A stretch of 64,000 bases of DNA, from the NCBI GenBank assembly GCA_023511535.1, contig JAIMBK010000009.1:643-64642 (forward strand), read 5' to 3'. Each line of letters begins with the position of its first letter. The first letter of the stretch is position 1. Below the pieces are notes generated by a model that did no database searches, was not told the origin of the DNA, and was given only the letters and a program-made list of their open reading frames with translations. A program made the position numbers and the translations under genes. Below are positions 3,790-34,916 of the stretch, piece after piece. This DNA comes from Armatimonadota bacterium. GTDB lineage: Bacteria; Bacillota; Desulfotomaculia; Desulfotomaculales; Nap2-2B.

Positions 3790-5313
3790 ATGTTTTTGGA
3801 TACCCCTTCGCAAAAAGAATATCTGGCGTTAAGCAAACATTTCAACCTGATTCCGGTAAGCTACGAGTGTTTTGCCGATACGCAGACGCCGATCACCGTT
3901 TACTGGAAGGTTTCCGGGGGGCGCCCGGGCTGCCTGCTGGAGAGCGTCGAGGGGGGCGAAAGGGTGGCCCGCTACTCCTTTCTCGGTATCGATCCTTTCC
4001 TTGCCTACAGTCACCGGGGAAAGACGGGCCGGGTGTGGAAGCAGGAAGGCGGCGCCGTTCAGAAGGTGGCCGGAAATCCCTTTGAAATTTTGGAAAACCT
4101 GATCTCCTCCTTCCGGGTGCCCGAATTGGAACTGCCCAGGTTTTTCGGCGGCGCCGCCGGGTATTTCGGGTACGATTTAGTGCACTGGCTGGAAAAGCTG
4201 CCTTCCGGAAACAAAAATGATTTGCCTTTCGACGACTGCTCCTTCCTGTTTTGCGGTACGGTGCTGATTTTCGACCACGTCCGGCACACGCTGCGCATTG
4301 TGGTAAACAGCTTTCCGGGAGATTCCCCGCAGCGGGCTTATACCCGGGCCGTCCGGAAAATCGAAGAGGTTTTGCGCGTTTTAAACGGCCCGGAACGGGA
4401 AAGTATTCCGTTATTAAACGGCGGCGCAAACTGCCGGGGGAGCCCGGACCCGCATTTTTCGCCGGCCGGATCCAATTTCACCCGGGAGAGTTTTCTAGAC
4501 GCGGTAAAAAGGGCCAAGGAATACATCCGGCAGGGAGAAATTTTGCAGGTTGTGCTTTCCCAGCGCTTTTGCCGGCCTTTTGCCGGGGATCCCTTTTTGG
4601 CTTACCGCCGCCTGCGCGCTGTGAACCCGTCTCCTTATTTATATTTCTTGAACTTCGGGGAGCTGGCGGTGGCGGGCTCTTCCCCGGAAATGCTGGTGCG
4701 GGTGGAGGGGGAAGACGTGGAAACCAGGCCGATTGCCGGCACCCGCCCGCGGGGCGGGACAAAGGATGAAGATGAGCGGCTGGCCCGGGAATTGCAGGCC
4801 GACCCCAAGGAAAGGGCCGAGCACGTCATGCTGGTTGACCTGGGACGGAATGATCTGGGGCGGGTCTGCGCGGCCGGAAGCGTTGAAGTTCCGCAGTTTT
4901 TAACGGTAGAAAAGTATTCCCACGTCATGCACCTGGTGTCTTCCGTCAAGGGCCGCCTGGCGCCCGGCCGGACGGCTTTTGATGCCTTGAAAGCCTGTTT
5001 TCCGGCAGGAACCGTCTCCGGCGCGCCAAAGGTGCGGGCCATGGAAATTATTGCCGAACTCGAACCGGCCGCGCGCGGCCCTTATGCGGGGGCCATCGGC
5101 TATATCGGCTTTAACGGCAACCTGGATACGGCCATTACGATCCGGACCGTGCTTTTTTCCCGGGGTAGCGCGTATGTCCAGGCCGGCGCGGGGATCGTCG
5201 CCGATTCCGACCCGGCCGGAGAATACGCGGAGACGGTGAAGAAAGCGCAGGCTTTGCTGGAAACCCTGGAAAGAATGCAAGGGGGTGGTTCAGTTGCTGG
5301 CCATGATCGATAA
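3790..5313 (+). CDS. trpE: anthranilate synthase component I
   Basis: Chorismate-binding family motifs [54 protein letters not shown]. The start may be TTG 3796, which has better spacing to GGAGG. Confidence 0.95.
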
Positions 5314-5872
5314 CTACGACTCCTTTACTTACAACCTGGTTCAATACCTGGGCCGGCTGGACGCGGAGGTGCGGGTCTGGCGCAACGACCAGATCAGCGT
5401 GCTGGAACTGCTGGCACTCAATCCTGCCCGGGTGGTGATTTCCCCGGGGCCGGGGACGCCGGACAGGGCGGGGATCACCCTGGAGACCGTCCGGCGGCTG
5501 GCCGGCAGCGTCCCGATCCTGGGCGTTTGTTTGGGCCACCAGGCCATCGGCCGGTGTTTCGGCGGCCGGATCGTCCAGGCCGCCCGCCTGATGCACGGCA
5601 AAACCTCGCTGATTTACCACGACGGCCGGGGCATTTTCCGGGGGATTCCCTCCCCTTTTAAGGCCGCCCGCTACCATTCGTTAATTGTGGAGAAGGAAAG
5701 CCTGCCTTCCTGCCTGGCGATCTCGGCCTGGACGGCGGAAGGGGAAATCATGGGTTTGCGCCACCGGGAGTTCACCGTGGAGGGGGTCCAGTTTCACCCG
5801 GAATCAATTTTAACGGAACACGGTTTGCAGTTGCTCCGGAACTTTCTCGCTTACCAAAGCGGCAGATGGTGA
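5285..5872 (+). CDS. trpG: anthranilate synthase component II (glutamine amidotransferase, TrpG/PabA)
   Basis: [16 protein letters not shown], catalytic GVCLGHQ, FHPES. The true start is probably TTG 5294 or ATG 5303, overlapping the trpE stop. Confidence 0.92.
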
Positions 5873-5895
5873 AAAGGGGAAAGGAGGAAAAGTTT

Positions 5896-6948
5896 ATGCA
5901 GCACGATCCGGAAATAATCAAGCAGGCCATTGCCCGGGTGGTCGGCGGCGGCGATTTATCAGAAACGGAGGCCGAACAGGCGATGGAATTGATCATGGAA
6001 GGCCAGGCCAGTCCGGCCCAAATCGCCGCTTTGCTCACCGCCCTGCGTTTAAAAGGGGAAACGGTGGAGGAAATTACCGGTTTTGCCCGGGTGATGCGCC
6101 GCAAGGCCATTCCCATCCGTTCCCGGCAGCCCCTGGTGGTGGATACCTGCGGAACGGGCGGGGACGGCGCCCACACTTTTAATATTTCCACCACTGTTGC
6201 CTTCGTCGTGGCCGGGGCGGGAATCCCGGTGGCCAAACACGGGAACCGCTCCGTTTCCAGCCGGTGCGGCTCGGCGGACTTGCTGGAAGCCATGCAGGTG
6301 CGCGTGGATCTGGAGCCGGGACAGGTGGAGGCCTGCCTGGAGGAATTGGGGATTGCCTTTTTGTTTGCCCCCGTTTTGCACGGGGCGATGAAGTACGCCG
6401 CCGGCCCCCGGCGGGAAATCGGAATCCGCACCGTTTTCAACGTCCTGGGTCCGCTGACCAATCCGGCGGGAGCGGGCGCCCAGATAGTGGGGGTTTACAG
6501 CACCGGATTGACGGAGAAGCTGGGGGCGGTGCTGTTGCGGCTGGGAACGCACCGTTCCTTCGTGGTGCACGGGGACGGCGGCCTGGACGAAATCTCTTTG
6601 TCCGGCCCGGCCGATGTCTGCGAGGTTTGCCGGGGGGAAGTCCGGAATTACCGCGTGGACCCGGCGGATTACGGCTTCCCGAGAGTGCCGGTTGACGCCT
6701 TAAAAGGCGGCCTTCCGAAAGAAAACGCGGCCATTACGCTGGAGATCTTAAAAGGCGCCCGCGGACCGCGGCGGGACGCCGTTTTAATCAACGCCGCCTT
6801 TGCCTTTCTGGCCGCCGGGGCCGCCGGCAGTGTGGCGGAAGGCCTGGAAAAGGCGGCGCAGAGCATTGACGAAGGTTTGGCCCTGGCCAAACTGGAGCAG
6901 TTAAGGGAGTTTACCAAAAGGGCGAAAAAGCTGGTGGCCGCGCTGTGA
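5896..6948 (+). CDS. trpD: anthranilate phosphoribosyltransferase
   Basis: DTCGTGGDGAHTFNISTT, KHGNRSVSS, FNVLGPLTNP. ATG 5896 follows GGAAAGGAGG. Confidence 0.93.
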   Translation: MQHDPEIIKQAIARVVGGGDLSETEAEQAMELIMEGQASPAQIAALLTALRLKGETVEEITGFARVMRRKAIPIRSRQPLVVDTCGTGGDGAHTFNISTTVAFVVAGAGIPVAKHGNRSVSSRCGSADLLEAMQVRVDLEPGQVEACLEELGIAFLFAPVLHGAMKYAAGPRREIGIRTVFNVLGPLTNPAGAGAQIVGVYSTGLTEKLGAVLLRLGTHRSFVVHGDGGLDEISLSGPADVCEVCRGEVRNYRVDPADYGFPRVPVDALKGGLPKENAAITLEILKGARGPRRDAVLINAAFAFLAAGAAGSVAEGLEKAAQSIDEGLALAKLEQLREFTKRAKKLVAAL

Positions 6949-7754
6949 TCCTGGACGAAATCGTCTCCTGGAAGCGGCGGGAAGTGGCCCGCCGAAAAGA
7001 GTTGTTTCCCCTGGCCGAGATGGAGCGGCGGCTGGCCCGAATGCCGCCCTGCCGGCCGCTCGCCGAAGCCATCCGACGGGAAAAGGAAATTGCTTTGATC
7101 GCCGAAATCAAGCGCGCTTCTCCTTCCAAAGGGGTGATCAGGCAAGCGCCGTTCGATCCGGCGGAGTTTGCCCGCGTGTACACGGAGGCGGGCGCGGCGG
7201 CAATTTCCGTGGTGACGGAAGAAAAATTTTTCGCCGGCCGGCTTGAATTTTTGCCGGCGGTGCGGCAAGCAACCACCCTGCCCGTGCTGCGGAAGGATTT
7301 CCTGATCGATCCGTACCAGCTCTTGGAGAGCCGTTTTTGCGGCAGCGACGCCGTTCTGCTGATCGCGGCTGTTTTAAGCGACCGCGAGCTGGCGGCATAC
7401 CAGCGGCTGGCCGCCGGACTGGGTTTAAGCTGCCTGGTCGAGGTGCATACCCGGGAGGAATTAACGCGCGCCCTGGATTCGGGCGCAGCGATCATCGGGA
7501 TCAACAACCGCGATTTGCGCACCTTTCAAACCAACCTGAACACCACCTTTTCCTTGAGGCGGTACATTCCCGGCCGCGGAGTCGTTGTGGTCAGTGAAAG
7601 CGGCATCAGCAGCCGCGCCCACATGCTGGCGCTGCAGGAACATGAGGTAGACGCCGCCCTGGTCGGCGAAGCCCTGATGCGCAGCCCGGACGTTGCCGGA
7701 AAGGTCAGGGAGTTGCTGGGGATGGAGAGGGAAGCACCACCATGGTCTGGGTGA
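6945..7754 (+). CDS. trpC: indole-3-glycerol-phosphate synthase
   Basis: IAEIKRASPSKG, LRKDF, IGINNRDL, SESGI. The GTG start overlaps the trpD stop (GTGA). Confidence 0.93.
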   Translation: MILDEIVSWKRREVARRKELFPLAEMERRLARMPPCRPLAEAIRREKEIALIAEIKRASPSKGVIRQAPFDPAEFARVYTEAGAAAISVVTEEKFFAGRLEFLPAVRQATTLPVLRKDFLIDPYQLLESRFCGSDAVLLIAAVLSDRELAAYQRLAAGLGLSCLVEVHTREELTRALDSGAAIIGINNRDLRTFQTNLNTTFSLRRYIPGRGVVVVSESGISSRAHMLALQEHEVDAALVGEALMRSPDVAGKVRELLGMEREAPPWSG

Positions 7755-8353
7755 AGATTTGCGGTATTCGGGACCTGGAAACCGCTCTTTTTGCCGCCCG
7801 CGCCGGCGCCGACGCGCTGGGGTTCGTTTTCGCCCCCGGCCGGCGGCAGGTCGCCCCGGTGCAGGCGAAAGCGATTATCCGGGCCTTGCCCCCGGGGATT
7901 GTGAAGATCGGCGTGTTTGTCGATGCGCCCCTGCATGAGGTGCAGGAAATCGCCCGTTTTTGCGGACTGGACGCCGTCCAGCTGCACGGTTCGGAATCGC
8001 CCCGGTATTGCCGCCTGGCCGGTCTGCCGGTGATTAAGGCTTTTCGCGTGGGGGCAGGGGACCTGACAGGAGCGGTGGGCAGTTACGACGCTGCGGCCAT
8101 TTTGCTGGATACCTACGTACCCGGGCGGGCGGGAGGGACCGGAAAATCTTTTGACTGGCGCCTGGCCGGGAAACTAAAGTTGAACTACGCCGGAAGAATT
8201 ATTCTGGCCGGCGGCCTGAACGCGCAAAACGTTCAGGAAGCCATCCGGATTGCCCGGCCTGATGGCGTGGACGTAAGCAGCGGGGTGGAAACGAACGGGC
8301 GCAAGGACCGGGAAAAGATCAAAGAATTCATTAAAAAAGCCAAAGAGGGATGA
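7742..8353 (+). CDS. trpF: phosphoribosylanthranilate isomerase
   Basis: VKICGI, GADALGFVF, LHGSESP, LAGGL. Overlaps the trpC stop. Confidence 0.9.
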   Translation: MVWVKICGIRDLETALFAARAGADALGFVFAPGRRQVAPVQAKAIIRALPPGIVKIGVFVDAPLHEVQEIARFCGLDAVQLHGSESPRYCRLAGLPVIKAFRVGAGDLTGAVGSYDAAAILLDTYVPGRAGGTGKSFDWRLAGKLKLNYAGRIILAGGLNAQNVQEAIRIARPDGVDVSSGVETNGRKDREKIKEFIKKAKEG

Positions 8354-8356
8354 AAA

Positions 8357-9559
8357 ATGCCGTCAGCAACAGCCCAATTACCGGATGAACGGGGTTATTT
8401 CGGGCGTTTCGGCGGGCGCTACGTGCCGGAAACGTTGATGAGCGCCCTGGAGGAGCTGGAAAAAGGGTACCTGGCCGCGCGCGCGGAGCCGGAATTTCAG
8501 CGGGAACTGGACTACTACTTGCAAAATTACGTTGGGCGCCCCTCGCCTTTATATTTTGCCGGGCGGCTGACCAAAGCCCTCGGGGGCGCCGGGATCTATT
8601 TGAAGCGGGAAGACCTCAACCATACCGGGGCCCATAAAATCAACAACACCCTCGGGCAGATCTTGCTGGCCCGCCGGATGGGAAAGCGGCGGATTATCGC
8701 CGAAACGGGGGCGGGGCAGCACGGGGTGGCCACCGCTACGGCAGCCGCCCTTTTCGGAATGGCGTGCGTCGTTTACATGGGGGAAGAAGATATGGCGCGG
8801 CAGGCCTTGAACGTTTTCCGAATGCGGCTGCTGGGCGCGGAGGTGCGCCCCGTGGCGACCGGCAGCCGGACGCTGAAAGACGCCATGAACGAAGCCCTGC
8901 GCGACTGGGTGACCAACGTGGAGACCACTTATTATCTGATCGGTTCGGTGGCCGGCCCGCATCCCTACCCCATGATAGTGAGAGATTTTCAAAAAATTAT
9001 CGGCGAGGAAACCAGGGAACAGATCCTGGCCTGCGCCGGCCGCTTGCCCGATTACATCCTGGCCTGCGTAGGCGGGGGGAGCAACTCCCTGGGAATCTTT
9101 TACTCTTTTCTGGAAGACGAAGAGACGCAGCTCATCGGGGTGGAAGCGGCCGGGCAGGGGCTGGCCTCCGGCCGGCACGCGGCGACTTTAAATTGCGGGC
9201 GGCCGGGCGTGCTGCACGGTTCGCTCAGCTACGTTTTGCAGGATGAGGACGGCCAGATCAAGCTGGCCCATTCCATTTCCGCCGGTCTGGACTACCCCGG
9301 GGTGGGGCCCGAACACAGCTACTTAAAAGAAAGCGGCCGGGTGGTCTATACGGCCGTGACCGATGCGGAAGCCCTGGCCGCCTTCCGGCTGCTGGCCCGG
9401 ACGGAAGGAATCCTGCCCGCCCTGGAAAGCGCCCACGCCCTTGCGCAGGCGGTCAAAATGGCGCCCCGCCTGGATGCCGGGAAGATCATCGTGGTGAATC
9501 TTTCCGGCCGGGGGGATAAGGATGTGGAAACGGTAAGCAAAGTTATGGAGGTTGAATAA
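8357..9559 (+). CDS. trpB: tryptophan synthase beta chain
   Basis: [16 protein letters not shown] (PLP lysine), [16 protein letters not shown]. Confidence 0.97.
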
Positions 9560-10357
9560 ATGGCTTCTCTTCACCGGATTGCCGCCAAGTTTGCCGAACT
9601 GGCCGCCCGGAACGAAAAGGGACTGATCACTTACCTGACGGCCGGCGACCCCGACCTGGACACGACTGCCCGCCTGGCCGAAGCAATGGAAAGGGCGGGG
9701 GCGGACTTCCTTGAGCTGGGCATCCCCTTTTCCGACCCCGTGGCCGACGGCCCCGCCATTCAAAAGGCTTCCTTCCGGGCTTTAAAAAAGGGGGTGCGCG
9801 TGGCCGCGATTATCCGGACGGCGGCCCAAATCCGCTCCCGGACCGGCGTCCCCCTGATTTTCATGACCTATTACAACCCGGTTCTGCAGTACGGCCTGGA
9901 AAAGTTCGCCTGCGATGCGGCCGGGGCCGGCGTGGACGGCCTGATCGTTCCCGATCTTCCTTGTGAAGAGGCCGGACCGCTGCTGGAAATAATGGATTCT
10001 TGCGGGCTGGCCTTGATTCCCCTGGCGGCGCCGACCACCACGGAAAGCCGCTTGCAGAAAATCGCCGCCGGCGCCCGCGGGTTTGTTTACTGCGTTTCCG
10101 TCACGGGAGTGACCGGGGCGCGGGAGCGCATCGACACCGATCTGGGGCAGTTTACCGGCCGGGTCCGGAAATATACCCGCTTGCCGGTGGCCGTTGGTTT
10201 CGGCATCGCCGGGCCGCCCCAGGCCGCGCAAACCGCTCCTTTTTGCGACGCCGTGGTGGTCGGCAGCGCAATTGTCCAGATCGTCACCGAACAGGGTTCC
10301 TCGGCGGTGGACGCCGTGAGCAAATTTGTGCGCGAAATAAAATCTGCTTTAAAATAG
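9560..10357 (+). CDS. trpA: tryptophan synthase alpha chain
   Basis: LELGIPFSDPVADGPAIQ, GFVYCVSVTGVTG. The start abuts the trpB stop. Confidence 0.95.
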   Translation: MASLHRIAAKFAELAARNEKGLITYLTAGDPDLDTTARLAEAMERAGADFLELGIPFSDPVADGPAIQKASFRALKKGVRVAAIIRTAAQIRSRTGVPLIFMTYYNPVLQYGLEKFACDAAGAGVDGLIVPDLPCEEAGPLLEIMDSCGLALIPLAAPTTTESRLQKIAAGARGFVYCVSVTGVTGARERIDTDLGQFTGRVRKYTRLPVAVGFGIAGPPQAAQTAPFCDAVVVGSAIVQIVTEQGSSAVDAVSKFVREIKSALK

Positions 10358-10667: not shown

Positions 10668-11684
10668 ATGGTGGTTGTAATGGATCATCACGCTGACGAA
10701 AAGCAGATTAACGCCGTGATCCGGCGGCTGGAAAAGGCCGGCTTCCAGATTCATCTTTCCCGGGGGGTAGAAAGGACCATCATCGGCGCCATCGGGGACC
10801 GGACGCGGGCCGGCGACCTTGGTTTGGAAGCCATGGACGGGGTGGAAAAAGTTGTCCCGATCCTTCAACCTTTTAAACTGGCCAGCCGAATATTTAAGCA
10901 GGAAGATTCTGTCGTCAAGGTAGGAAATTTGGCGATTGGCGGCGAAATAATCCACATCATGGCCGGACCCTGCGCGGTGGAAAGCCGCGAGCAGCTGCTG
11001 GAGGTGGCGCACCAGGTAAAAGAAGCGGGGGCGACCATTTTACGCGGGGGGGCATATAAACCGCGCACTTCTCCCTACTCCTTCCAGGGGTTGGAAAAAG
11101 AAGGCCTCGAGCTCCTCGCCGAGGCCCGCGCGGCTACCGGTCTGTACATTGTAACCGAGGTCATGGACACCCGGGCCGTTCCTTTGGTGGCCGAGTATGC
11201 CGACATTTTGCAGATCGGCACGCGCAACATGCAGAATTTCAACCTGCTCAAAGAAGTCGCCGCGGTGAACAAGCCGGTTCTTTTGAAGCGGGGGCTTTCC
11301 GCCACCATCGAGGAGTGGTTGATGGCCGCCGAGTACATCATGGCGGGGGGAAACCACCAGGTAATCCTGTGCGAAAGGGGCATCCGGAGTTTTGAAACCT
11401 ATACGCGCAACACCCTGGACCTCTGCGCCGTTCCGGTGGTGAAACACTTAAGCCACCTGCCGGTGGTGGTCGATCCCAGCCACGCCATCGGGAAATGGCG
11501 CTACGTTCCGGCGATGGCCCGGGCCGCCCTGGCCGCCGGAGCGGACGGGCTGCTCGTAGAAGTTCACCCCAACCCGCAGGAAGCTTTGTGCGACGGTCCC
11601 CAGTCGCTGACCCCGGACAACTTTGCCGCCATGATGGCGGACCTGCGCAAAATGGCCGCCCACCTGGGCAGAAAACTGGAGTGA
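10668..11684 (+). CDS. aroF: 3-deoxy-7-phosphoheptulonate (DAHP) synthase, type I-beta with N-terminal ferredoxin-like/ACT-like regulatory domain
   Basis: N-terminal roughly 70 aa regulatory domain ([40 protein letters not shown]) as in the Thermotoga-type enzyme. Catalytic motifs [28 protein letters not shown]. Confidence 0.9.
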
Positions 11685-11815: not shown

Positions 11816-12229
11816 GTGAACCAGGAAGGACAACTGGTCATCTTCCAGCTGAACGATCAGCAGTACGCCTTGCCCATTCACCAGATCCAGGAAATCGTCA
11901 AAATGACCGCCATCACCCGCGTACCAAACACCAGGCCTTACGTGGAAGGAATTATCAATCTCAGGGGAAACATCATCCCGGTGATCAACATGAACAGGCG
12001 CCTGAATTTGCCGGTCAGCGGGTACGACGACGCCACCCGCATCATCGTGGTGGAATTGAAGGGTCAAAAAGTAGGCATCATCGTTGATAACGTAACGGAA
12101 GTGGGGCGCTTCACGGAAAACGAGGTGGAGCCGCCGTCCGTGGTGGGTGACGACGTGGATTATCTAAACGGTGTAGTGAAAAAGGAAAATAATTTGTGGC
12201 TGCTCTTAAACCTGGAAAAAGTTCTGTGA
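11816..12229 (+). CDS. cheW: chemotaxis coupling protein CheW (single-domain)
   Basis: LVIFQLNDQQYALPIHQIQEI, INLRGNIIPVINM, GIIVDNVTEV. GTG 11816 follows AAAGGGGGG. The upstream part of the 11495 ORF overlaps aroF and looks non-coding. Confidence 0.85.
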   Translation: MNQEGQLVIFQLNDQQYALPIHQIQEIVKMTAITRVPNTRPYVEGIINLRGNIIPVINMNRRLNLPVSGYDDATRIIVVELKGQKVGIIVDNVTEVGRFTENEVEPPSVVGDDVDYLNGVVKKENNLWLLLNLEKVL

Positions 12230-12646: not shown

Positions 12647-14059
12647 ATGGTGAAGGATCACCGGGAGCAGGTGCAGGAACACGAACGGGTACAAAGGCAA
12701 GAACAGGAAAAGGAACAGGAACGGGAACGGGAACGGCAGCCGGGACAGAAATATCTCGTTTTGACCTACGGCTGCCAGATGAACGAACACGATTCCGAAG
12801 TAATGGCCGGGATTCTGGAAGAAATGGGCTACCGGCCGGCAAAGCGCAGGGAAGAGGCGGACGTTATCCTGGTCAATACCTGCTGCGTGCGGGAGACGGC
12901 CGAAAACAAAATTTACGGATTGCTCGGGGAGTTCCGCCGGCTGAAAATGAACCGGCCCGGCCTGCTGATCGGCGTAGGCGGCTGCCTGACCCAGCAGGAA
13001 GCGGCGGCCAAAAAAATCCGGGACCGCTTCCCTTACGTCGACCTGATTTTCGGCACGCATAATCTTCCCCGCCTGAGAGAATTGATCGAACAGGCAAAAG
13101 AGAGCCGCCGGACGGTGGTGGAACTGCTGGACCGCTCCGAACCGGCGCCGGAGGGCCTGCCCATCCGGCGGGCCAGCGGCGTTAAAGCCTGGGTAGTGAT
13201 CACCTTCGGCTGCAACAATTTTTGCACCTACTGCATAGTTCCGTACGTCCGCGGCCGGGAGTGCAGCCGGCCACCGGAGAACATCCTGGCCGAGATCAGG
13301 GACCTGGCGGCGCAGGGGTATAAAGAAGTGACGCTGCTCGGTCAAAACGTTAATTCTTACGGCCGGGATCTCCCGGGGAACGTGGATTTTGCCGGACTTT
13401 TAACGGAAGTCAACCAGATTAAAGGGATCGAACGCATCCGGTATACCACTTCCCACCCCCGGGACTTTTCCCCCCGCCTGATCGAAGCGATTGCCCGGGG
13501 CGAAAAGATTTGCGAGCACGTCCACCTGCCCGTGCAGGCGGGAAGCAACCGCGTTTTGCGCATGATGAACAGGGGTTACACCCGCGAAGACTACCTGGCG
13601 CTGGTGGAAAAAATCCGGGAGGCCATTCCGGGAGCAGCGCTTACCACCGACATCATGGTCGGCTTTCCCGGCGAAACGGACGAAGATTTTGCGCAAACCC
13701 TCGATCTGGTGGAAAGGGTCCGCTTTGACAGCGCCTTTATGTTTATTTACAACATCCGCCCGGGTACGCCGGCCGCGCGCCTGCCCAACCAGGTGAAAGA
13801 CGAAGTAAAAAGAGCCAGGATTAAAACGCTGATCGAAAAGCAAAATCAAATCACCAAAGAGATCAATATAAATGAAGAAGGGAAAATTTACCGCCTCCTG
13901 GTGGACGGCGAAAGCAAGACCAACCCCCGGATGTTAAGCGGGCGAACCCGCACGAACAAGCTGGTCATTTTCCCCGGCCCGCCGGAATTGGTGGGAAAGT
14001 TCGTTGATGTAAGGATCACCAGGGGGAAGCTGACTCATTTAGAAGGGATTAGTGAATAG
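12647..14059 (+). CDS. miaB: tRNA-2-methylthio-N6-dimethylallyladenosine synthase
   Basis: UPF0004 N-domain [12 protein letters not shown], radical SAM cluster [14 protein letters not shown]-terminal TRAM domain. The N-terminal roughly 33 aa are low-complexity ([12 protein letters not shown]). Confidence 0.9.
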
Positions 14060-14077
14060 GGAGTAGTGAATAGGGAT
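14050..14077 (+). repeat. tandem 14-nt duplication (two heptamer pairs) spanning the miaB stop codon
   Basis: TAGTGAATAGGGAG (14050-14063) then TAGTGAATAGGGAT (14064-14077). The miaB TAG is at 14057-14059. Confidence 0.8.
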
Positions 14078-14205
14078 TATCTGTTTTTCAATGAAATTTC
14101 TAGAAATATTTTATTTCCGGCAGGATTTCCGGAGTTATTGGAGAATTCCATTTTTCAAAAGATTATTACGAGTTGGCTGATTGGCAACCGGGCAAACTTT
14201 TTGGG

Positions 14206-15924
14206 GTGAAAACCTTTACGGGGGTGAAGACTTTGTATATCGGGGTGGATGTAGGGGGTACTTACACGGACGCGGTTCTCCTGGAGAAGGGGCGCGTGCG
14301 CGCAACGGCGAAGGTTCCAACGCGGACGGACCTGCTTTCTTCTCTTTTAGAAGCGTTCGACAAAATCATTATGCAGGGATTTCCCACGGAGCTGATCAAA
14401 AAGGTTGTCTTCAGCACAACCATGATTACCAATCTCATTGCCGAGAAGAAGTACGACCGCGTCGGCCTTCTGGTTATGCCCGGCCCCGGCTTATGCTCCT
14501 CTGCGTATAACTTCCCGGCGGATACCCGGATCGTTTCCGGGGCGATCGATTACCGCGGAAGGGAAATTGTTCCGGTGGATTTAGCCGGGGTGGATCAGGC
14601 CCTGACCGGTTTCGCCGCGAAAAATTTACGCAAAATAGCGATCGTCGGGAAGTTTTCCTCCCGGAACAACGCCCACGAGGTGCAAGTCGAAAAACACGTT
14701 CAAAAAAAATTTCCTGACTGGCATTGTGAAGTTGGCCACAAGGTGGCCGGTCAGTTGAACTTTCCCCGGCGGGTGATCTCGACCTACCTGGCCGCCGCAA
14801 CCAGGGAAAAATACCAGAACTTTATCCGTTCGGTGCAGGAAGCCCTGGCGAAACGCCAGATCACAGCTCCGGTCTTCATTTTGAAGGCCGACGGCGGTAC
14901 GCTCCCCCTTTCCTATTCTTCGGAAACGGCCATCGAAACCATTTTCAGCGGGCCGGCGGCCAGCACCCTGGGGGTCCAGGCCTTAACGCCCGCCGGCGAA
15001 ACTTCGGTGGTGGTGGACATCGGCGGAACGACCACGGACCTGGCTTTGATTTTAAGCGGAGTACCCCTGCTGTCCTCGAAAGGGGCGCGGGTAAACGGTT
15101 ACCTTACGCACGTCCGCACCCTGGCGGTAAAATCGGTCCCCATCGGCGGGGACAGCGCCGTGGACCGGGTGGGCAGGGATATTATCGTTTATTCGGAGCG
15201 GGTGGGTCAGCCCTACTGCCTGGGCGGCCCCGTCCCGACGCCCACCGATGCGCTGCGGGTGCTCGGCCTGGTGATGCTGGGTGACGGGGAACGGGCCGGG
15301 GAGGCGATGCGGATGCTGGGGGAACCGCTGGGAATCAGCAACGAAGAAGTGGCCGGGCGCATCATTTCCTTTGTTTGCGACACCATCGCCCGGGAAATCC
15401 GGTTAATGTTTGCGCAGTGGGAGCAGGAACCCGCCTACCGGGTGTGGGAAGTTCTTCAGAAAAAAAAGGTCCGGCCAAACACGGTGGTCGGCGTGGGCGG
15501 CGGAGCCGCCGGCTTGATCACGCAAATCGCCGCCCGGCTGGGCGCCTCCCCGATTATTCCGCCCTACGCGCCCGTCGCCAACGCCATCGGGGCTGCGGTG
15601 GCCCGGCCCACCCTGCAGGCGAGTTTAAGGGCGGATACCGAACAGGGCACCTACACGATTTTGGAGGAAGGCTATCAGGATCAGCTGCCCGCAGAGCATT
15701 TTGACGAGGGCAAGGCCGTCGAACTGGCCAAAAACTGGCTTTTCAAACGCATTACCAGGTACGGCCTGGAAAAAGACCTGAAGGAAGTCGAGGTAACCAG
15801 GCGGGAAGTTTTCAACGTGGTGAGGGACTGGGTGACGGTGGGACGGCTGTACGATGTAGTGGTGCAGTCCCAGCGGGGAATCACCTACCACGTCGGGATC
15901 GAGGTGAACGAGGATGACGCTTAA
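14206..15924 (+). CDS. hydantoinase/oxoprolinase-family (ASKHA-fold) protein, HyuA-like, no HyuB partner
   Basis: IGVDVGGTYTDAVLL phosphate-1 motif and DIGGTTTDLALI second ASKHA motif. Start is uncertain (TTG 14173, GTG 14206 or 14224). Confidence 0.8.
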   Translation: MKTFTGVKTLYIGVDVGGTYTDAVLLEKGRVRATAKVPTRTDLLSSLLEAFDKIIMQGFPTELIKKVVFSTTMITNLIAEKKYDRVGLLVMPGPGLCSSAYNFPADTRIVSGAIDYRGREIVPVDLAGVDQALTGFAAKNLRKIAIVGKFSSRNNAHEVQVEKHVQKKFPDWHCEVGHKVAGQLNFPRRVISTYLAAATREKYQNFIRSVQEALAKRQITAPVFILKADGGTLPLSYSSETAIETIFSGPAASTLGVQALTPAGETSVVVDIGGTTTDLALILSGVPLLSSKGARVNGYLTHVRTLAVKSVPIGGDSAVDRVGRDIIVYSERVGQPYCLGGPVPTPTDALRVLGLVMLGDGERAGEAMRMLGEPLGISNEEVAGRIISFVCDTIAREIRLMFAQWEQEPAYRVWEVLQKKKVRPNTVVGVGGGAAGLITQIAARLGASPIIPPYAPVANAIGAAVARPTLQASLRADTEQGTYTILEEGYQDQLPAEHFDEGKAVELAKNWLFKRITRYGLEKDLKEVEVTRREVFNVVRDWVTVGRLYDVVVQSQRGITYHVGIEVNEDDA

Positions 15925-17284
15925 AAAAACCGGCATCGTCTTTTTTCCGGCTTTCGACTGGGCTATTTCGCCCACGCACCCGGAAAGGGAGGAAAGGCTG
16001 CTGTACACCAGGGACCAGATCTTCGAGGAAGGTGTTTTCGATCTGCCGCAAATCCTGGAATATCCTCCCCGCCTGGCCACCCTGCACGATATCAGCCGCG
16101 TCCACTTTTGCGTTCCCCGGGTGCAGAGCAGGATTACGGAAGCCCATTTAATCGCCGCGGGAGCAACCATGCTGCTGGGCGACCGCATCATCGCCGGGGA
16201 AATCAAAAACGGCTTTGCCCTGGTGCGCCCGCCGGGCCACCACGCCATGCGCGTGGTGCACGGCAACCGGGGCTTCTGCAACATCAACAACGAAGCCATT
16301 CTGGTAGATTACCTGCGCCGCCGCTACGGGATCAAAAGGGTGGCCATCGTTGATTCGGACGTTCACCACGGGGACGGCACGCAGGATATTTTTTACCACG
16401 ACCCGGACGTGCTGTTTATTTCCTTCCACCAGGATGGCCGGACGATTTACCCGGGGTCGGGTTTCCCCAACGAACTGGGCGGTCCCCGGGCCTTTGCCCA
16501 CACGTTGAATATTCCGCTTCCCCCCGGCATGACGGACGAAACCTTTCATTACGTGGTCGACAACCTGGTCCTGCCCGTTCTGAAGGATTTCCAGCCGGAT
16601 TTTATCATCAACTCGGCGGGGCAGGACAACCACTACACCGACCCGCTGGGCAGTATGCGCTTTACCGCGCAGGGGTACGCGGAGTTTACCAGGAAGCTCA
16701 ACCCTCACCTGGCGGTGCTGGAAGGGGGTTACGCCATTGAAACGGCCCTGCCGTACGTAAATCTGGGCATTTTGCTGGCCCTGGCCGGCGTAGACTTCTC
16801 CAATGTGCGCGAACCGGATTACTGGCCCGGCCGGCTTTCCGAGAACGCAGAGCGGGCGGCCAAAGTCCGCCAGATGGTTGACCAGCTAAGGGAAATCTGG
16901 GACGGCAGGGATCAGGTGGATGTAGAAAAATTGTTTGGCACCGGCCGTTTTTACCAGCGCAAAAAGCGGATTTATTACGATACCGATTACATTGACGAGG
17001 AGCAGCTTGAAAAATTAAGGTTATGTCCTTCCTGTCCGGGGTTTTTGATTATCGACTCGCGGGCCGACCATGGGTTTGGCCACCCCACGCGGGCCTGCTG
17101 CGTTTCTGTTCCCTTCAACGCCTGTGCAGCGTGCCACCAGGAGGCTTACGACGCGTACGAGGAAGGGAAACAAACCCCGGGTTTCCAGTACGTTTACCTG
17201 CAGGATAAGGCCACCGATGTCTACTACGCCTTTGACCGCGAAAAGGGGCAGGAGTGGGTATCGGAAGGACCGAAAAATGAATAA
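15914..17284 (+). CDS. histone deacetylase/acetoin-utilization (arginase-deacetylase fold) family protein with Cys-rich C-terminal extension
   Basis: RPPGHHA, DSDVHHGDGTQDIFY, EGGY catalytic/zinc motifs. The ATG overlaps the upstream stop by 11 nt. The C-terminal roughly 110 aa contain CPSCP ... CC ... CAAC. Confidence 0.85.
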   Translation: MTLKKTGIVFFPAFDWAISPTHPEREERLLYTRDQIFEEGVFDLPQILEYPPRLATLHDISRVHFCVPRVQSRITEAHLIAAGATMLLGDRIIAGEIKNGFALVRPPGHHAMRVVHGNRGFCNINNEAILVDYLRRRYGIKRVAIVDSDVHHGDGTQDIFYHDPDVLFISFHQDGRTIYPGSGFPNELGGPRAFAHTLNIPLPPGMTDETFHYVVDNLVLPVLKDFQPDFIINSAGQDNHYTDPLGSMRFTAQGYAEFTRKLNPHLAVLEGGYAIETALPYVNLGILLALAGVDFSNVREPDYWPGRLSENAERAAKVRQMVDQLREIWDGRDQVDVEKLFGTGRFYQRKKRIYYDTDYIDEEQLEKLRLCPSCPGFLIIDSRADHGFGHPTRACCVSVPFNACAACHQEAYDAYEEGKQTPGFQYVYLQDKATDVYYAFDREKGQEWVSEGPKNE

Positions 17285-17314
17285 ATCAGGTGAAATGTGG
17301 GAAATAATGGCTGT

Positions 17315-18268
17315 ATGAGCGGGTTGCTGCCGCTGCTGGTGATTGTGGGCCCTACGGCGACCGGGAAAACGGCCGTGGCCGTGGAAGTGGCGAAACGGTT
17401 GAACGGGGAAATCGTTTCGGCCGATTCCATGCTGATTTACCGCCAGATGGATATCGGGACGGCCAAGCCGGATGCCAAAGAACGGCAGGGCATTTCCCAC
17501 TACATGATTGACATTATTGATCCCGACGAACCGTATAGCGTCGCTCTCTACCAGGAGCAGGCCGAAAAGCACATCCGGGAAATAGCCGGCCGCGGCAGGC
17601 TTCCCATGCTGGTGGGCGGCACCGGGTTATACGTCCGTTCCGTCATCGACCGTTATAATTTTCCGCGTCCGGGGTTCGATGCGGAGCTGCGCCGGAAGTT
17701 GCAGGAGGAGGCAGCAGCATCCGGCCGGGAGGCGGTTTACCGCCGGCTGGAGGAAGTGGACCCCGAAACCGCCCGGAAAATCCACCCGCACAATTTAAAA
17801 AGGGTGATCCGGGCCCTCGAAGTTTATTATCTCACCGGCGTACCCGTTTCCCGGCGGCAGGAGCAAAAGGCGGGTCCGAAATACAACCTGGCCATGTTCG
17901 GCCTGATCATGGAAAGGGCGCTTCTCTACCGCCGGATTGAAGAACGGGTGGACAAAATGCTGGCCGCGGGGCTGGTGGAAGAGGTCCGGCGGCTGTTGAA
18001 CAGCGGCTACGGGCCGGAACTGGTTTCCATGCAGGGACTGGGTTACAAGGAGGTGGCCCAATATTTAACCGGTCAAGCCACCCTGGAGGAAGCGATTTAC
18101 CTGCTCAAGCGGAACACGCGCCGCTTTGCCAGGCGCCAGCTGACCTGGTTCGGCCGCGATCCACGCGTTAAATGGATCGACGTCACGCAGCTTTCCGATC
18201 CCAAAGATGTTGCCGGGGAAATTGTTCGATCGGCAGCAGGAGTATTTGAAGATACGTCGAAGACTTGA
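17315..18268 (+). CDS. miaA: tRNA dimethylallyltransferase
   Basis: P-loop VGPTATGKT, DSMLIYRQMDIGTAKP, RQLTWF. The maximal ORF starts at GTG 17297. Confidence 0.92.
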   Translation: MSGLLPLLVIVGPTATGKTAVAVEVAKRLNGEIVSADSMLIYRQMDIGTAKPDAKERQGISHYMIDIIDPDEPYSVALYQEQAEKHIREIAGRGRLPMLVGGTGLYVRSVIDRYNFPRPGFDAELRRKLQEEAAASGREAVYRRLEEVDPETARKIHPHNLKRVIRALEVYYLTGVPVSRRQEQKAGPKYNLAMFGLIMERALLYRRIEERVDKMLAAGLVEEVRRLLNSGYGPELVSMQGLGYKEVAQYLTGQATLEEAIYLLKRNTRRFARRQLTWFGRDPRVKWIDVTQLSDPKDVAGEIVRSAAGVFEDTSKT

Positions 18269-18302
18269 GTAAAGAAAAAAATTCCAACGGAGGGGCCATT
18301 GC

Positions 18303-18539
18303 ATGACCAAAACCCAGTTAAATCTCCAGGACGCTTTTTTAAACCAGGTGCGCAAGGAAAATTTGCCGGTCACAATCTTTTTGGTTAACGGGTTTCAACT
18401 GAAGGGAATAATCAGGGGCTTCGATAATTTCACGGTCATCCTGGAAAGCGACGGCAAACAGATGATGGTCTACAAGCATGCCATTTCCACGATCAGCCCG
18501 GTTAAACCTGTTAATCTGGCGGAAAACAAACCGGCGTAA
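18303..18539 (+). CDS. hfq: RNA chaperone Hfq
   Basis: Sm1/Sm2 motifs [28 protein letters not shown] ... [10 protein letters not shown]. Confidence 0.95.
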
Positions 18540-18632: not shown

Positions 18633-19589
18633 GTGAAAACACCTGCCCGAGGTGACCTGGATGTGGTAAAAATTAGAATGTGGCCGGATAACGGCACAAA
18701 ACTTTCCCCAAAACCGTCCCCAAAACTGTCTGAGAAAAATAAAACCGAGCCGAAAAAAGACAGTTTGGCCGGCCTGAATGTCCAGGAAATCTTAAGCGAA
18801 TTAAACTCGTTGATCGGGCTGCGGGAAATTAAAAAGCTGATTGGCGAAATCTACGCCCTGGTGGAGATTCAAAAAAGGCGCCAAAAAGAAAAGCTGCCGG
18901 TGGAGCCCCAGGTGCTGCACATGATTTTCAAAGGAAACCCCGGCACGGGAAAGACGACGGTGGCCAGGATTATCGGCCGCCTTTTTAAAGAAGTGGGCGT
19001 GCTGCCGAAGGGGCACCTGGTCGAGGTGGAAAGGGCCGATCTGGTCGGCGAGTATATCGGACATACGGCGCAAAAAACGCGCGAGCAATTAAAAAAGGCC
19101 CTGGGCGGCGTTTTGTTTATTGACGAAGCCTATTCGCTGGCCCGCGGCGGAGAAAAGGATTTCGGCAAAGAAGCGATCGACGTCCTGGTGAAAGGTATGG
19201 AAGACAATAAGGACAACCTCATTTTGATTCTGGCCGGCTACCGGGACGAGATGGACTGGTTCATCGAAAGCAACCCCGGCCTGCGCTCCCGCTTTCCCAT
19301 TCATTTGAGTTTTCCCGATTATACCATTGACGAATTGCTGGCGATTGCCGATTTAATGCTGTTCAGGAGGCATTACGTTTTCTCCCCGGGAGCCAGGGAA
19401 GAACTGCGCCTGCTCCTGGAAAAGGAGGCGGTTACCCACCGCCACAACGGCAACGCCCGGCTGGTCCGCAACTTTATCGAAAAGTCCATCCGGCAGCAGG
19501 CGGTCCGGCTGGTCCAAAAGAAAGAGGTTACCCGGGAAGAACTGATGACTATTACGCGGGAGGATATTTTGCAGGCAAAATTAAATTAG
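18633..19589 (+). CDS. spoVK: stage V sporulation protein K-type AAA+ ATPase
   Basis: Walker A GNPGTGKTT, Walker B VLFIDEAYSL, CbbX/SpoVK-type GYRDEMDWF and NPGLRSRF. Start is uncertain. Confidence 0.8.
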   Translation: MKTPARGDLDVVKIRMWPDNGTKLSPKPSPKLSEKNKTEPKKDSLAGLNVQEILSELNSLIGLREIKKLIGEIYALVEIQKRRQKEKLPVEPQVLHMIFKGNPGTGKTTVARIIGRLFKEVGVLPKGHLVEVERADLVGEYIGHTAQKTREQLKKALGGVLFIDEAYSLARGGEKDFGKEAIDVLVKGMEDNKDNLILILAGYRDEMDWFIESNPGLRSRFPIHLSFPDYTIDELLAIADLMLFRRHYVFSPGAREELRLLLEKEAVTHRHNGNARLVRNFIEKSIRQQAVRLVQKKEVTREELMTITREDILQAKLN

Positions 19590-19668
19590 GAATTGGGGGG
19601 TGGGAATTAGGAATTGGGGTTTGTATTGTACCCCCAATTCCTGGTTCCTGATTCCCAATTCCCAATTA
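19588..19668. repeat. long imperfect hairpin built from GGGAATT / AATTCCC heptamer units
   Basis: G-rich arm GGAATTGGGGGGTGGGAATTAGGAATTGGGG, loop TTTGTATTGTA, C-rich arm CCCCCAATTCCTGGTTCCTGATTCCCAATTCCCAATT. The inner stem AGGAATTGGGG/CCCCAATTCCT is perfect. Confidence 0.8.
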
Positions 19669-19682
19669 CTATCTGTTCAGGG

Positions 19683-20933
19683 GTGAATACACTTTTGACC
19701 GATCATAACCTGCTGGACCTGGCCGAAGAGGTGGAAAAAGAAGCCCGGCCCATTTACCAAAAAATTGAGAAAACGGCTTTCTGCAACCAGCAACGGGTGC
19801 TGGACGCCTTCCGGCGGGCCAGGGTGAGCGACTTCCACCTGAAGGGGTCGACGGGCTACGGATACGGCGACCAAGGGCGGGAAACCCTGGAAAGGGTGTA
19901 CGCGGAAGTTTTCGGCGCCGAAAAAGCACTGGTCAGGGGCCAGATTGTCAGCGGGACGCACGCGCTGGCGCTGTGCTTTTTCGGAATCCTGCGCCCGGGG
20001 GACGAACTGCTGGCCGTCCAGGGCCAGCCGTACGATACGCTGCAGGCAATCATCGGCACGGCAAAAAAGGCGCCGGGGAACCTCCGGGAATGGGGCGTAT
20101 CCTACCGCCAGGTAGAACTTTTGCCGGACGGAACCCCGGATTGGGCAGGAATTGCCGGCGCCGTCAGCGACCGGACGAGGATGGTTTTCCTGCAGCGCTC
20201 GCGCGGATATACAAACCGGCCTTCCCTGAATCTGCAGGAAATGAAGAAATTGATTTCATTTCTCAAAAGTCGCAAACCGGACGTTGTGGTGTGCGTGGAC
20301 AACTGCTACGGTGAATTTGTGGAAGACGCCGAACCGCCGGCAATCGGCGCCGACCTTGCCGCGGGGTCTTTAATCAAAAATCCCGGCGGGGGGCTGGCTC
20401 CCGGCGGAGGTTACGTCGTTGGACAGGCCCGCTATGTGGAGATGGCCGCCAGCCGCTGGACCGCCCCGGGGATCGGCGGTGAAGTAGGCCCCGCCCCGGA
20501 ATTTCAACGGCTTTTGTTCCAGGGGCTGTTTATCGCCCCCCACGTGGTGGCCGAGGCCCTGAAGGGGGCGGTTTTTGCCGCCCGCTTCTGCGAGCGCCTG
20601 GGCTTTGCCGTGTCACCTTCGTACCGGGAAGAACGCACCGACATCATCCAGGAGATCACCCTGGGCTCCCGGGAGCGCCTGCTGGCCTTTTGCCGGGGGA
20701 TTCAAAGCGCCTCGCCGGTGGACGCCCACGTTCGCCCCGAACCGGCGCCCCTGCCGGGGTACAGCGACCCCGTGATTATGGCGGCCGGCACGTTTGTCCA
20801 GGGGGCTTCTTTAGAACTCAGCGCCGATGCGCCCGTAAAGGAACCGTACCGGGTTTACCTGCAGGGGGGCTTAACGAAGGAGCACGTGACACTGGCGGTA
20901 ATTTCGGCGGCTAAAGAAATGCTGGGGAAATAA
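19683..20933 (+). CDS. PLP-dependent Cys/Met-metabolism family protein (YnbB / aluminium-resistance-protein-like)
   Basis: N-terminal region (FHLKGSTGYGYGDQGRETLERVYAEVFGAEKALVR) and length resemble the YnbB family. The start was placed after the hairpin. Confidence 0.7.
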   Translation: MNTLLTDHNLLDLAEEVEKEARPIYQKIEKTAFCNQQRVLDAFRRARVSDFHLKGSTGYGYGDQGRETLERVYAEVFGAEKALVRGQIVSGTHALALCFFGILRPGDELLAVQGQPYDTLQAIIGTAKKAPGNLREWGVSYRQVELLPDGTPDWAGIAGAVSDRTRMVFLQRSRGYTNRPSLNLQEMKKLISFLKSRKPDVVVCVDNCYGEFVEDAEPPAIGADLAAGSLIKNPGGGLAPGGGYVVGQARYVEMAASRWTAPGIGGEVGPAPEFQRLLFQGLFIAPHVVAEALKGAVFAARFCERLGFAVSPSYREERTDIIQEITLGSRERLLAFCRGIQSASPVDAHVRPEPAPLPGYSDPVIMAAGTFVQGASLELSADAPVKEPYRVYLQGGLTKEHVTLAVISAAKEMLGK

Positions 20934-20944
20934 AGGTGACAGCG

Positions 20945-21844
20945 ATGAACTTAAGGCAGCTCGAAGTATTTTTGTGGGTGGCCGAACTGAAAAGCTTTAC
21001 CGGGGCGGCTAAGCACCTGTTTATGAGCCAGCCGGCGGTCAGCTTCCAGATCCGTGCCCTGGAGGAAGAACTGGGGGTTAAACTGTTCTGGCGCAACGAA
21101 AAGAACGTCACCCTTACCGAAGCCGGGCGCCTGTTGTATCCGGAGGTCCGGCAGATGGTCGGCCACTTCTATAAACTCAAGTCCGGGCTGGAAGATTTAA
21201 AAGGCCTGCGCACGGGCCGCCTGGAGATCGGAGCCAGCACCATCCCCGGCGAATACGTGCTGCCGCTTCTGATCGGAGATTTCCGCCGGATCTACCCGGG
21301 CATTCAGATCAGCCTGCGGATCGGCGGCAGCGGGGAAGTGGAAAAGTGGCTCCTCGACCGGGAAATCGATCTGGGCTTTACCGGCGTTTTCGTCGCCGGC
21401 AAAGATGTTCAGTGTCTGCCCTGGATCGACGACCGCCTCGTCCTGATCGTCCCCCCCGACCACCCCTGGGGACTGAAGAAGAGCGTGGAACTTTCCGAAC
21501 TGATCAAAGAACCACTTATTTTACGCGAGCCGGGTTCCGGCACCCGGCGGACCTTTGAAGCCAAACTGGCGGGCAAAGAGATTACCCTGGCGCAATGCAA
21601 CGTTGCCATGGAACTGGGCAGCACGCGGGCAATCATCACAGCGGTCCAGGCCGGCCTGGGGGTGGGGGTGGTTTCCTTTTGGGCCGCGCAGGAGCCGTTG
21701 CTTCTGGAACGGGTGCGGGAAGCGGTTTTAAAAGACCTTGACCTGCAAAGAAAATTATACGTTGCCCGCAGCAAGAACCGGATTAACAACTACGCCGCTG
21801 ACGCCTTTTTCGAATTTATTTTTCAGCAAGCGGAGGTTTTTTGA
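20945..21844 (+). CDS. LysR-family transcriptional regulator
   Basis: N-terminal wHTH MNLRQLEVFLWVAELKSFTGAAKHLFMSQPAVSFQIRALEEELG plus a substrate-binding domain. Confidence 0.88.
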   Translation: MNLRQLEVFLWVAELKSFTGAAKHLFMSQPAVSFQIRALEEELGVKLFWRNEKNVTLTEAGRLLYPEVRQMVGHFYKLKSGLEDLKGLRTGRLEIGASTIPGEYVLPLLIGDFRRIYPGIQISLRIGGSGEVEKWLLDREIDLGFTGVFVAGKDVQCLPWIDDRLVLIVPPDHPWGLKKSVELSELIKEPLILREPGSGTRRTFEAKLAGKEITLAQCNVAMELGSTRAIITAVQAGLGVGVVSFWAAQEPLLLERVREAVLKDLDLQRKLYVARSKNRINNYAADAFFEFIFQQAEVF

Positions 21845-32587: not shown

Positions 32588-32625
32588 ATGATAGAGAATG
32601 GGGATGGGGATTTTGGTTTTGGGTG
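32573..32625 (+). repeat. GGGGATA/GGGGATT-type degenerate heptamer array spanning the rbgA stop
   Basis: GGGGATA GGGGATA AATGATA GAGAATG GGGATGG GGATTTT GGTTTTG GG. The rbgA TAA is at 32585-32587. Confidence 0.75.
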
Positions 32626-32769
32626 TTTTTAGCCGCAGGTGGTTGTTTTTTTCTTTCTGTAAGGAAGCGGAACGTTTACCCGGGCAAATCCAGCCGGAAA
32701 AATTCTTTCTGGTTAGCAGGGATTTGGACTTTCAGCTCGAAAAAATACTTATGGAGGATTAAACCCGCC

Positions 32770-33556: not shown

Positions 33557-33913
33557 TTGCTTTCGGATTGGGGAGCGGTGCTCATTTTCCTGGTTGTTGG
33601 TCTTGGCGTCGGAATCGGGGGGGTGGCCGTCAACCTTTTGCTCAATCCGCGCCGGAAATTTGCCCAAAAATACGAAACGTACGAATGTGGCGTGGATACC
33701 ATCGGCCCCACCTGGGTTCAGTTCAAGACCAGTTACTTTTTATACGCCCTGCTGTTTGTCATCTTTGACGTGGAAACAATTTTCCTGTACCCCTGGGCCG
33801 TGCAATTTCAAAGGCTGGGTTTGTTCGCCTTTATTGAGATGATTATTTTCATCTCTCTTTTAGTGATCGGCCTGTGGTACGCCTGGAAGGAAGGAGCGTT
33901 AGAATGGAAGTAA
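33557..33913 (+). CDS. nuoA: NADH-quinone oxidoreductase subunit A
   Basis: Three-TM protein with YECG and FDVE motifs. TTG start after AAAGGAGGGGAG. Confidence 0.88.
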
Positions 33914-34891: not shown

Positions 34892-34916
34892 AATTAAAAG
34901 AATGAGGATAAGTGTT

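Follow-up and report, generated by a model that had tools for sequence, protein, structure and literature searches.

In Bacillus subtilis and many Clostridia the mismatch-repair genes mutS and mutL form part of a conserved cluster with the order miaB-(ymcA)-(cotE)-mutS-mutL-miaA-hfq. Natural loss of MutS-MutL is a known phenomenon and has also occurred in epsilonproteobacteria, mollicutes and endosymbionts. Actinobacteria and many Archaea naturally lack both proteins and use NucS/EndoMS (PMC5290159, PMC4938668). Here we analyzed a stretch of 64,000 nucleotides (hereafter the window; contig JAIMBK010000009.1, positions 643 to 64,642) from an Armatimonadota bacterium placed by GTDB in the Desulfotomaculales, in which miaB and miaA-hfq are found without mutS and mutL. 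The anchors miaB, miaA and hfq, the downstream gene spoVK and the orientation of the locus are those of the classical Firmicutes cluster, but the window lacks mutS, mutL and the ymcA-like gene and carries two genes absent from the Bacillus-type cluster, named hyd and hdac in what follows. The mutS-hyd-hdac-mutL cluster of Desulfofundulus and other genera contains an orthologous pair with the same neighbours in the same order (at most 72% identical for hyd and 81% for hdac in the closest lineages, and less in Syntrophomonas and its relatives); compared with this cluster, what flanks hyd-hdac on either side is missing from the window clade. Our comparison of these loci shows that the canonical MutS-MutL genes have been lost lineage-specifically from an old conserved cluster, and the window clade would be a further case of natural loss.

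Lineage-specific loss of mutS and mutL from a conserved cluster

Genes of the window were called by Pfam and NCBIfam scans, and all those listed here lie on the + strand. The left anchor of the conserved cluster is miaB, encoding a tRNA methylthiotransferase (12647-14059; Pfam UPF0004, Radical_SAM and TRAM; NCBIfam TIGR01574, 563 bits), and the right anchor is miaA, encoding a tRNA dimethylallyltransferase (17297-18268; Pfam IPPT, 7.5e-93), which is followed by hfq (18303-18539; Pfam Hfq, 1.1e-35). Between the anchors lie hyd (14173-15924; Pfam Hydant_A_N and Hydantoinase_A), coding for an ATPase-like protein of the hydantoinase/oxoprolinase (HyuA) family, and hdac (15914-17284; Pfam Hist_deacetyl, 1.4e-70), coding for a deacetylase/amidohydrolase of the histone deacetylase (HDAC) family, class II-like.

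The original prediction, made from the sequence of the window alone, held that no mismatch-repair gene is present in it, and this is borne out by the sizes of the open reading frames (ORFs), by Pfam and by tblastn over the 64 kb. The longest ORF of the window has 640 aa and is NuoL-like. Among the 40 window ORFs scanned with Pfam, which are about two thirds of those of at least 80 aa, none contained a MutS or MutL domain and none matched NucS/EndoMS. When MutS, MutL and the methyltransferase of relatives were compared by tblastn with the window and with nine related loci (L001-L009), there was no match at the locus; at E<=10 the search returned merely three noise matches, all distant from it. 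Across the window and these nine loci no gene with the Pfam domains MutS_I to MutS_V lies between miaB and miaA, and no gene with HATPase_c_3, DNA_mis_repair and MutL_C lies directly upstream of miaA, where the window has 12 nt. One match of hyd to a family labelled MutL (PF13941) was discarded, as it scored 24 bits against a cut-off of 27 and the family is associated with glutamate mutase, not with repair.

To place this arrangement among relatives, 86 loci were collected by an exact-protein look-up of Hfq and by a MiaA scan of one genome per species, and were mapped by tblastn with the window proteins and with MutS, MutL and methyltransferase of Desulfofundulus australicus. In two of the relatives (L013 and L020) the identity of MutS (domains I-V) and of MutL was confirmed by Pfam. 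The classical order [miaB]-mutS-mutL-miaA-hfq was found in 14 loci, including those of Moorella, Peptostreptococcus and Lachnospiraceae, in agreement with the earlier statement that mutS-mutL lie immediately upstream of miaA-hfq in many Firmicutes. More than 20 loci instead have the order miaB-(ymcA/ylbF-like)-mutS-hyd-hdac-mutL-(PF04445 methyltransferase)-miaA-hfq. They belong to Desulfofundulus, Desulfovirgula, Pelotomaculum, Thermincola, Syntrophomonas, Syntrophaceticus and metagenome-assembled genomes (MAGs), and hyd-hdac lies between mutS and mutL in L012, L013, L020, L021, L023-L025, L035, L040, L042, L049, L054, L059, L068, L088 and L090-L093 (for example at 4326-11974 of L090). The view that the cassette had come to occupy the slot of mutS-mutL is thus overturned: since the pair stands between the two repair genes in more than 20 loci, it is not a replacement but an old resident of this position across several Bacillota classes. 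In L014, L015 and L089 mutS-mutL-miaA occurs without the cassette.

The window clade consists of the window and the nine loci L001-L009, which come from MAGs and read-run assemblies, and eight of the nine loci span the junctions. Together with the window, eight loci show the arrangement miaB-hyd-hdac-miaA or, where less is covered, hdac-miaA. At the nucleotide level L001-L008 share 94-97% identity with the window, and L009 (MAG158) is 82% identical, with 79% identity in MiaA. The nearest outgroups (L010/L088, L087, L012/L013/L090, L091, L092 and L093) have 57-70% identity in MiaA and 73-81% in HDAC, and every outgroup in this range of MiaA identity still has mutS and/or mutL there; in the closest of these lineages, L010/L088 and L087, the methyltransferase gene is already gone. 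Downstream of hfq the order spoVK, ynbB-like, lysR (18633-21844 in the window) is the same in the outgroups L091 and L092, which carry mutS and mutL. The loss is therefore a derived state relative to gene-bearing sister lineages, and the synteny comparison proposed with the original prediction gives a clear answer: this is a locus where mutS and mutL would be expected, and their absence is due to lineage-specific loss.

A second clade of about 40% GC (L016-L019; Peptococcaceae bacterium SCADC1_2_3, UBA2203, UBA4795 and UBA9916) has miaB adjoining miaA, with mutS, hyd, hdac, mutL and the methyltransferase all missing from the locus (for example at 8613-10924 of L017).

Two deletion junctions can be recognized in the window. 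The first is the 113-nt spacer between miaB and hyd (14060-14172), where relatives have the ymcA/ylbF-like gene and mutS, about 3.2 kb in all. The second is made up of the 12 nt between the hdac stop and the miaA start (17285-17296), where relatives have mutL, usually followed by the PF04445 S-adenosylmethionine (SAM)-dependent methyltransferase gene, about 2.6 kb in all. In pairwise alignments the window and L009 have homologous sequence at both junctions, which indicates that each deletion occurred once, before these lineages split. The genes beside the deletions are full length. No remnant of mutS, mutL, the methyltransferase or the ymcA-like gene was detected in any spacer of the clade (tblastn, E<=10), and the miaB-hyd spacer has no recognizable homology to the mutS promoter regions of the outgroups, with their TATAAT element and GGAGG ribosome-binding site. 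Both junctions are spanned in three NCBI MAGs (L001, L007 and L009), a fourth (L008) covering the hdac-miaA junction only, and they are also spanned in Logan assemblies of four read runs.

An insert of 300-470 nt between hdac and miaA in L001 and L002 was considered as a possible remnant of mutL and rejected, since it is a repeat/hairpin element. Hairpin-rich inserts of about 150-470 nt with the motif GAGCTCTTAAGCGACRGCAAACGAACGGCG occur in L001 (8545-9010), L002 (4822-5120) and L007 (2370-2560). The site of insertion varies, being the hdac-miaA spacer in L001 and L002 and the miaB-hyd spacer in L007, and the motif is absent from the 64-kb window. The insert looks like a small mobile repeat element.

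Fate of the repair genes and the substitution spectrum

Absence from the locus may reflect true loss or transfer of the genes to another place in the chromosome. With the closest outgroup's MutL and a Desulfofundulus-type MutS as queries, we searched a collection of 5.8 billion proteins and considered the best 120 homologues per search. The genomic context was read for nine homologues (50-87% identity to the query for MutL, 56-62% for MutS), and all nine lay in the canonical cluster of other lineages. The other top matches, down to about 52% (MutL) and 61% (MutS), map at 75% identity or more to canonical-cluster loci or carry the names of other cultured species; outside that assignment are three MutS matches, two on contigs 40-42 kb long and one on a contig of 3.7 kb. 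Among the nearest homologues examined there was no relocated mutS or mutL copy of the window clade, by a method that is blind to very divergent or foreign copies.

On balance we favour the view that the window lineage, 64 kb of whose genome was read, truly lost MutS-MutL and did not merely move them, because two independent excisions flank a retained cassette, because two bystander genes vanished together with the repair genes and because no relocated copy was found. The ancestral order in Desulfotomaculia-like Bacillota was miaB-(ymcA-like)-mutS-hyd-hdac-mutL-(SAM methyltransferase)-miaA-hfq. Before the window organism diverged from its relatives (down to 79% MiaA identity), their common ancestor lost two stretches separately, one with the ymcA-like gene and mutS, the other with mutL and, if it was still present, the methyltransferase gene. 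These deletions appear to end at gene boundaries, leaving hyd-hdac and the flanking tRNA-modification genes intact and under selection. Once one of the two repair genes was inactivated the other would have been useless, and both probably eroded away. Erosion of partner genes after one inactivation is the route by which repair pathways have been lost in other bacteria.

If mismatch correction had ceased in the clade, its substitutions would be expected to carry the mark of uncorrected errors, since transitions predominate in the spectra of repair-defective strains (bioRxiv 10.1101/346874). Five window-clade pairs have transition/transversion ratios of 1.8-3.5 at fourfold-degenerate sites, compared with 3.4 in the nearest repair-proficient pair (L010/L088), and the ratios over all sites agree with this result. 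A transition-dominated neutral spectrum was therefore not found in the five pairs when set against L010/L088. Thus, although mutS and mutL are missing here as they are in the laboratory mutators of mutation-accumulation experiments (bioRxiv 10.1101/346874), the transition dominance of those strains is absent from the fourfold sites of the window clade. Runs of at least six identical bases occur at 2.3-3.1 times expectation in the clade and at 1.4-3.1 times in repair-proficient relatives. Indels per substitution number 0.022-0.046 in the clade against 0.008-0.027 in control pairs, with 7-14 events per pair, and in a sample of this size the excess is at most a weak signal. With an ordinary synonymous spectrum and ordinary homopolymers, these data indicate indirectly that the loss left no signature of uncorrected replication errors.

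The same data weigh against true loss. Fourfold-site ratios no higher than those of the nearest repair-proficient pair, and long homopolymers as frequent as in repair-proficient relatives, are what is expected of a clade in which mismatch correction still operates. Elsewhere in the genome there could be a mutS/mutL that is divergent or was acquired horizontally, or an enzyme of the NucS type, and absence from MAG-derived proteins is weak evidence because MAGs are incomplete. The corresponding alternative is that mutS and mutL moved elsewhere in the genome, or gave way to a pair acquired horizontally or to another mismatch-correction enzyme, so that repair is functional and synteny alone has changed. 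We regard this as possible although rather unlikely. Besides the ordinary spectrum and homopolymer content, it draws on the readiness with which the region rearranges in relatives, as in L014, L015 and L089, which are without the cassette, and in L016-L019, in which miaB stands beside miaA, and on the fact that our inspection covered the best 120 homologues per search. It would however require two separate excisions, as the hyd-hdac genes between mutS and mutL did not move; the candidates checked included no close homologue outside the canonical context; and the disappearance of the ymcA-like and methyltransferase genes as well looks like erosion and not like transposition.

If true loss is nevertheless what happened, fidelity may be kept by other means encoded outside the window, or the loss may be tolerated by the lineage. 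A true loss of MutS-MutL together with an ordinary spectrum could mean that fidelity is ensured by a pathway not yet known in Firmicutes, a proposal that we consider doubtful. Were it correct, the clade would be a natural system for finding the replacement pathway, by way of its sisters with mutS-hyd-hdac-mutL, and a genome-wide absence of the genes with a normal transition/transversion ratio would itself raise the question of what replaces mismatch repair. The window clade resembles the NucS lineages in that the canonical genes are absent (here, at the locus) and the substitution spectrum looks normal. It differs from them in that the loss is recent and lies amid carriers of MutSL, whereas theirs is ancient and phylum-wide, and in that genome-wide absence is, for the window clade, only probable. 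What is unusual here is a recent loss in a spore-forming and otherwise repair-proficient group of Firmicutes, in which the ancestral locus, both junctions and close sisters can be compared.

Tandem arrays and the rnhB frameshift

The original prediction went further and proposed that missing or impaired mismatch repair had caused the short tandem arrays of the window, a near-perfect duplication at 14050-14077, an in-frame array in rbgA and a 1-nt frameshift in rnhB. The features themselves are largely as described. Using Tandem Repeats Finder, with the mean of 30 dinucleotide shuffles as expectation, we counted 51 arrays in the window where 11.4 +/- 2.9 are expected, and 15 with a score of at least 40 where 1.9 are expected, so that short arrays are indeed abundant. 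The duplication at the end of miaB is real and corresponds to a 14-nt unit (GGGATTAGTGAATA-like) present in 2.4 copies (94% identity) that extend across the miaB stop codon at 14044-14076; it is of the GGGRWTW heptamer type. The rbgA array, detected by Tandem Repeats Finder and by alignment, is likewise confirmed as an in-frame heptamer repeat (ACCTCCA x 7, 32042-32093, + strand), and it is three units (21 nt) longer in the window than in L001, L002 and L005. A hexamer array in the N-terminal region of miaB (12701-12734) also varies in length between strains, with indels relative to L001 and L007 at 12731-12735. Many of the arrays belong to a GGGRWTW heptamer family that marks the 3' ends of genes: its members begin at a stop codon or shortly beyond it, within the spacer to the following gene, and a pattern scan gave 8 matches where 0.12 are expected. 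GGGRWTW-type arrays were located at 1050-1074, 14044-14076, 19602-19667, 32572-32611, 34939-34981 and 52157-52171. They occur in the window species group and not in L009 or the outgroups, and their lengths depend on the strain.

Array density in L001-L008 is similar to that of the window, compared with 1.7-3.5 arrays per 10 kb in most repair-proficient relatives. L009, in which mutS and mutL are absent through the same deletions, has 5 arrays where 3.3 are expected. Among loci in which both genes are present, the corresponding counts are 5 against 3.6 (L012), 3 against 2.3 (L088) and 12 against 4.9 (L090). As L009 shares the deletions and the time elapsed since the loss and has arrays at chance level, the repeat load is a later trait and does not follow generally from the lack of mutS and mutL, and the comparison shows indirectly that it is limited to the window species group. 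Indels between the window and L001, L005 or L007 also lie mostly inside arrays with units of 6-21 nt, with few 1-nt indels among small counts. In bacteria, repair that depends on MutS deals with mismatches and with loops of about 1-4 nt, and array units of 6-21 nt would escape it in any case.

The frameshift in rnhB (RNase HII; 32767-33382, + strand) is real, but the claim that it lies at a G7 run does not hold. The 0 frame ends with ...ACC GGG GGG GAT GGT CTT TAG (stop at 33178-33180), and the C-terminal 67 codons continue in the +1 frame beyond the shift at GGT CTT TAG C (33172-33181). When one T is skipped after CTT, the product can be aligned with E. coli RNase HII without a gap, catalytic GD included, and matches the intact homologues P0241 and P0242, which read GGDG[L/R]SASIAAAS. 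This gap-free alignment and the match to intact homologues place the extra base in the T run at CTT-T-AGC (33175-33181), 5 nt past the G7 run, and not in the G7 run itself. The T insertion may have arisen by slippage.

The CTT-TAG-C site is shared by four lineages, namely the window (33159-33181), L001 (19605-19630), L005 (7501-7526) and L096-L098 (4397-4420 in L096), the last, with about 85% nucleotide identity, having been assembled by ENA, JGI and Logan independently of one another. In all four the +1 frame downstream of the shift is open. Downstream codon changes between the window and L001 comprise 13 synonymous and 3 non-synonymous ones, and between the window and L096 third codon positions account for 16 of the 26 changes downstream of the shift and for 40 of the 66 upstream. 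By these substitution patterns the downstream frame is under purifying selection, and the gene appears to be still in use and not decaying.

A CUU codon followed by an in-frame stop and a C, with the protein continuing in the +1 frame, is the arrangement found in rnhB. In prfB a Shine-Dalgarno-like stimulator lies 3 nt upstream of the shift codon. The rnhB site looks like one of this type, with its CUU-stop-C and a G-rich element upstream, although the conserved G7 run ends 5 nt before CUU and not 3 nt. The rnhB CUU-UAG-C site is thus, from its sequence, a candidate for programmed +1 frameshifting of the prfB type. We found no report of a programmed frameshift in rnhB in the searchable literature, and the conserved site is a by-product of this work that may be of wider interest.

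Taken together, these observations make it very improbable that loss or impairment of mismatch repair caused the arrays, the 14-nt duplication, the rbgA array and the rnhB frameshift. The proposal can point to the window species group, with 3-4 times more arrays per 10 kb than most repair-proficient relatives and 4.5 times the number expected by chance, to indels per substitution at about 1.5-3 times the level of control pairs (from small counts) and to the extra T of rnhB, which is a change of the slippage type. Yet L009 has had the same deletions for the same time without a clear excess of arrays, the array units and strain indels are mostly of 6-21 nt and so beyond the loop sizes handled by MutS, the excess of transitions is absent, homopolymers are ordinary, and the rnhB shift is kept in four lineages with a constrained downstream frame. 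The apparent gene breaks of relatives do not help either: miaA of L002 is split by a GAA-to-TAA substitution and spoVK of L001 is broken by a run of Ns, so that we rejected both as slippage indels. The inference 'no repair, hence repeats and frameshifts' therefore fails against the natural control L009, which calls for caution with similar inferences elsewhere. Finally, the missing genes can hardly be put down to faulty assembly or binning, such as a contig that was collapsed or is chimeric, for although most relatives are MAGs or automatic assemblies and L001 has a run of Ns in its hdac-miaA spacer, the same junctions, homologous in sequence, recur in at least six independent assemblies from different projects.

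The change that splits miaA in L002 is the one G/T difference, at position 5749, between L002 and L003, otherwise identical Logan contigs of sister read runs. Either the GAA-to-TAA change is polymorphic in the population and inactivates miaA, or it is an error of the assembly.

The hyd-hdac cassette and neighbouring genes

In relatives hyd lies directly downstream of mutS and hdac directly upstream of mutL, and the two genes travel together and often overlap or abut; in the window the hdac start overlaps the hyd stop by 11 nt. The closest solved relatives of the hyd product are 5-oxoprolinase and acetophenone carboxylase subunits. The hdac product, a zinc deacetylase/amidohydrolase by family, has a Cys-rich C-terminal extension and matches HDAC6 and HDAH in the PDB. 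Identity within the clade is 83-97% for hyd and 93-99% for hdac, compared with 69-72% between hyd and its Desulfofundulus and Desulfovirgula orthologues and 73-81% between hdac and the outgroups. Since the pair is strongly conserved in a clade without mutS and mutL, its function is independent of those genes, and judging from this conservation the cassette is still functional in the clade. No curated model in the NCBIfam scan names either gene. As a guess, the pair might form an ATP-dependent amidohydrolase complex. A literature search found no account of hyd-hdac embedded between mutS and mutL, and this pair, like the rnhB site, may be of interest beyond the present question.

At the 5' end of the hyd ORF (14190-14225) the window carries a direct duplication of 16-18 nt (GGGGTGAAAACCTTTAC / GGGGGTGAAGAC...). 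It is specific to the window, being absent from L001 and L007, and probably lies upstream of the true hyd start codon.

Upstream of miaB the window contains the trp operon (3790-10357), a gene for 3-deoxy-D-arabino-heptulosonate 7-phosphate (DAHP) synthase (10668-11684) and cheW (11846-12229), all assigned by Pfam/NCBIfam. The Hfq protein is identical in L001-L006 according to the exact-protein look-up. In the window hfq is followed by spoVK (18633-19589; NCBIfam spore_V_K), a gene for a ynbB-like pyridoxal phosphate (PLP) enzyme (19614-20933; Pfam) and lysR (20936-21844; Pfam). Further downstream are a nuo operon of the 11-subunit type (33557-43747) and an ssb...DUF2232-rplI-Lon-like-dnaB-purA block (47598-55636), which in Firmicutes is usually found near the replication origin. 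The presence of miaA-hfq, the nuo operon and the ssb...purA block within about 40 kb suggests a compact or rearranged chromosome.

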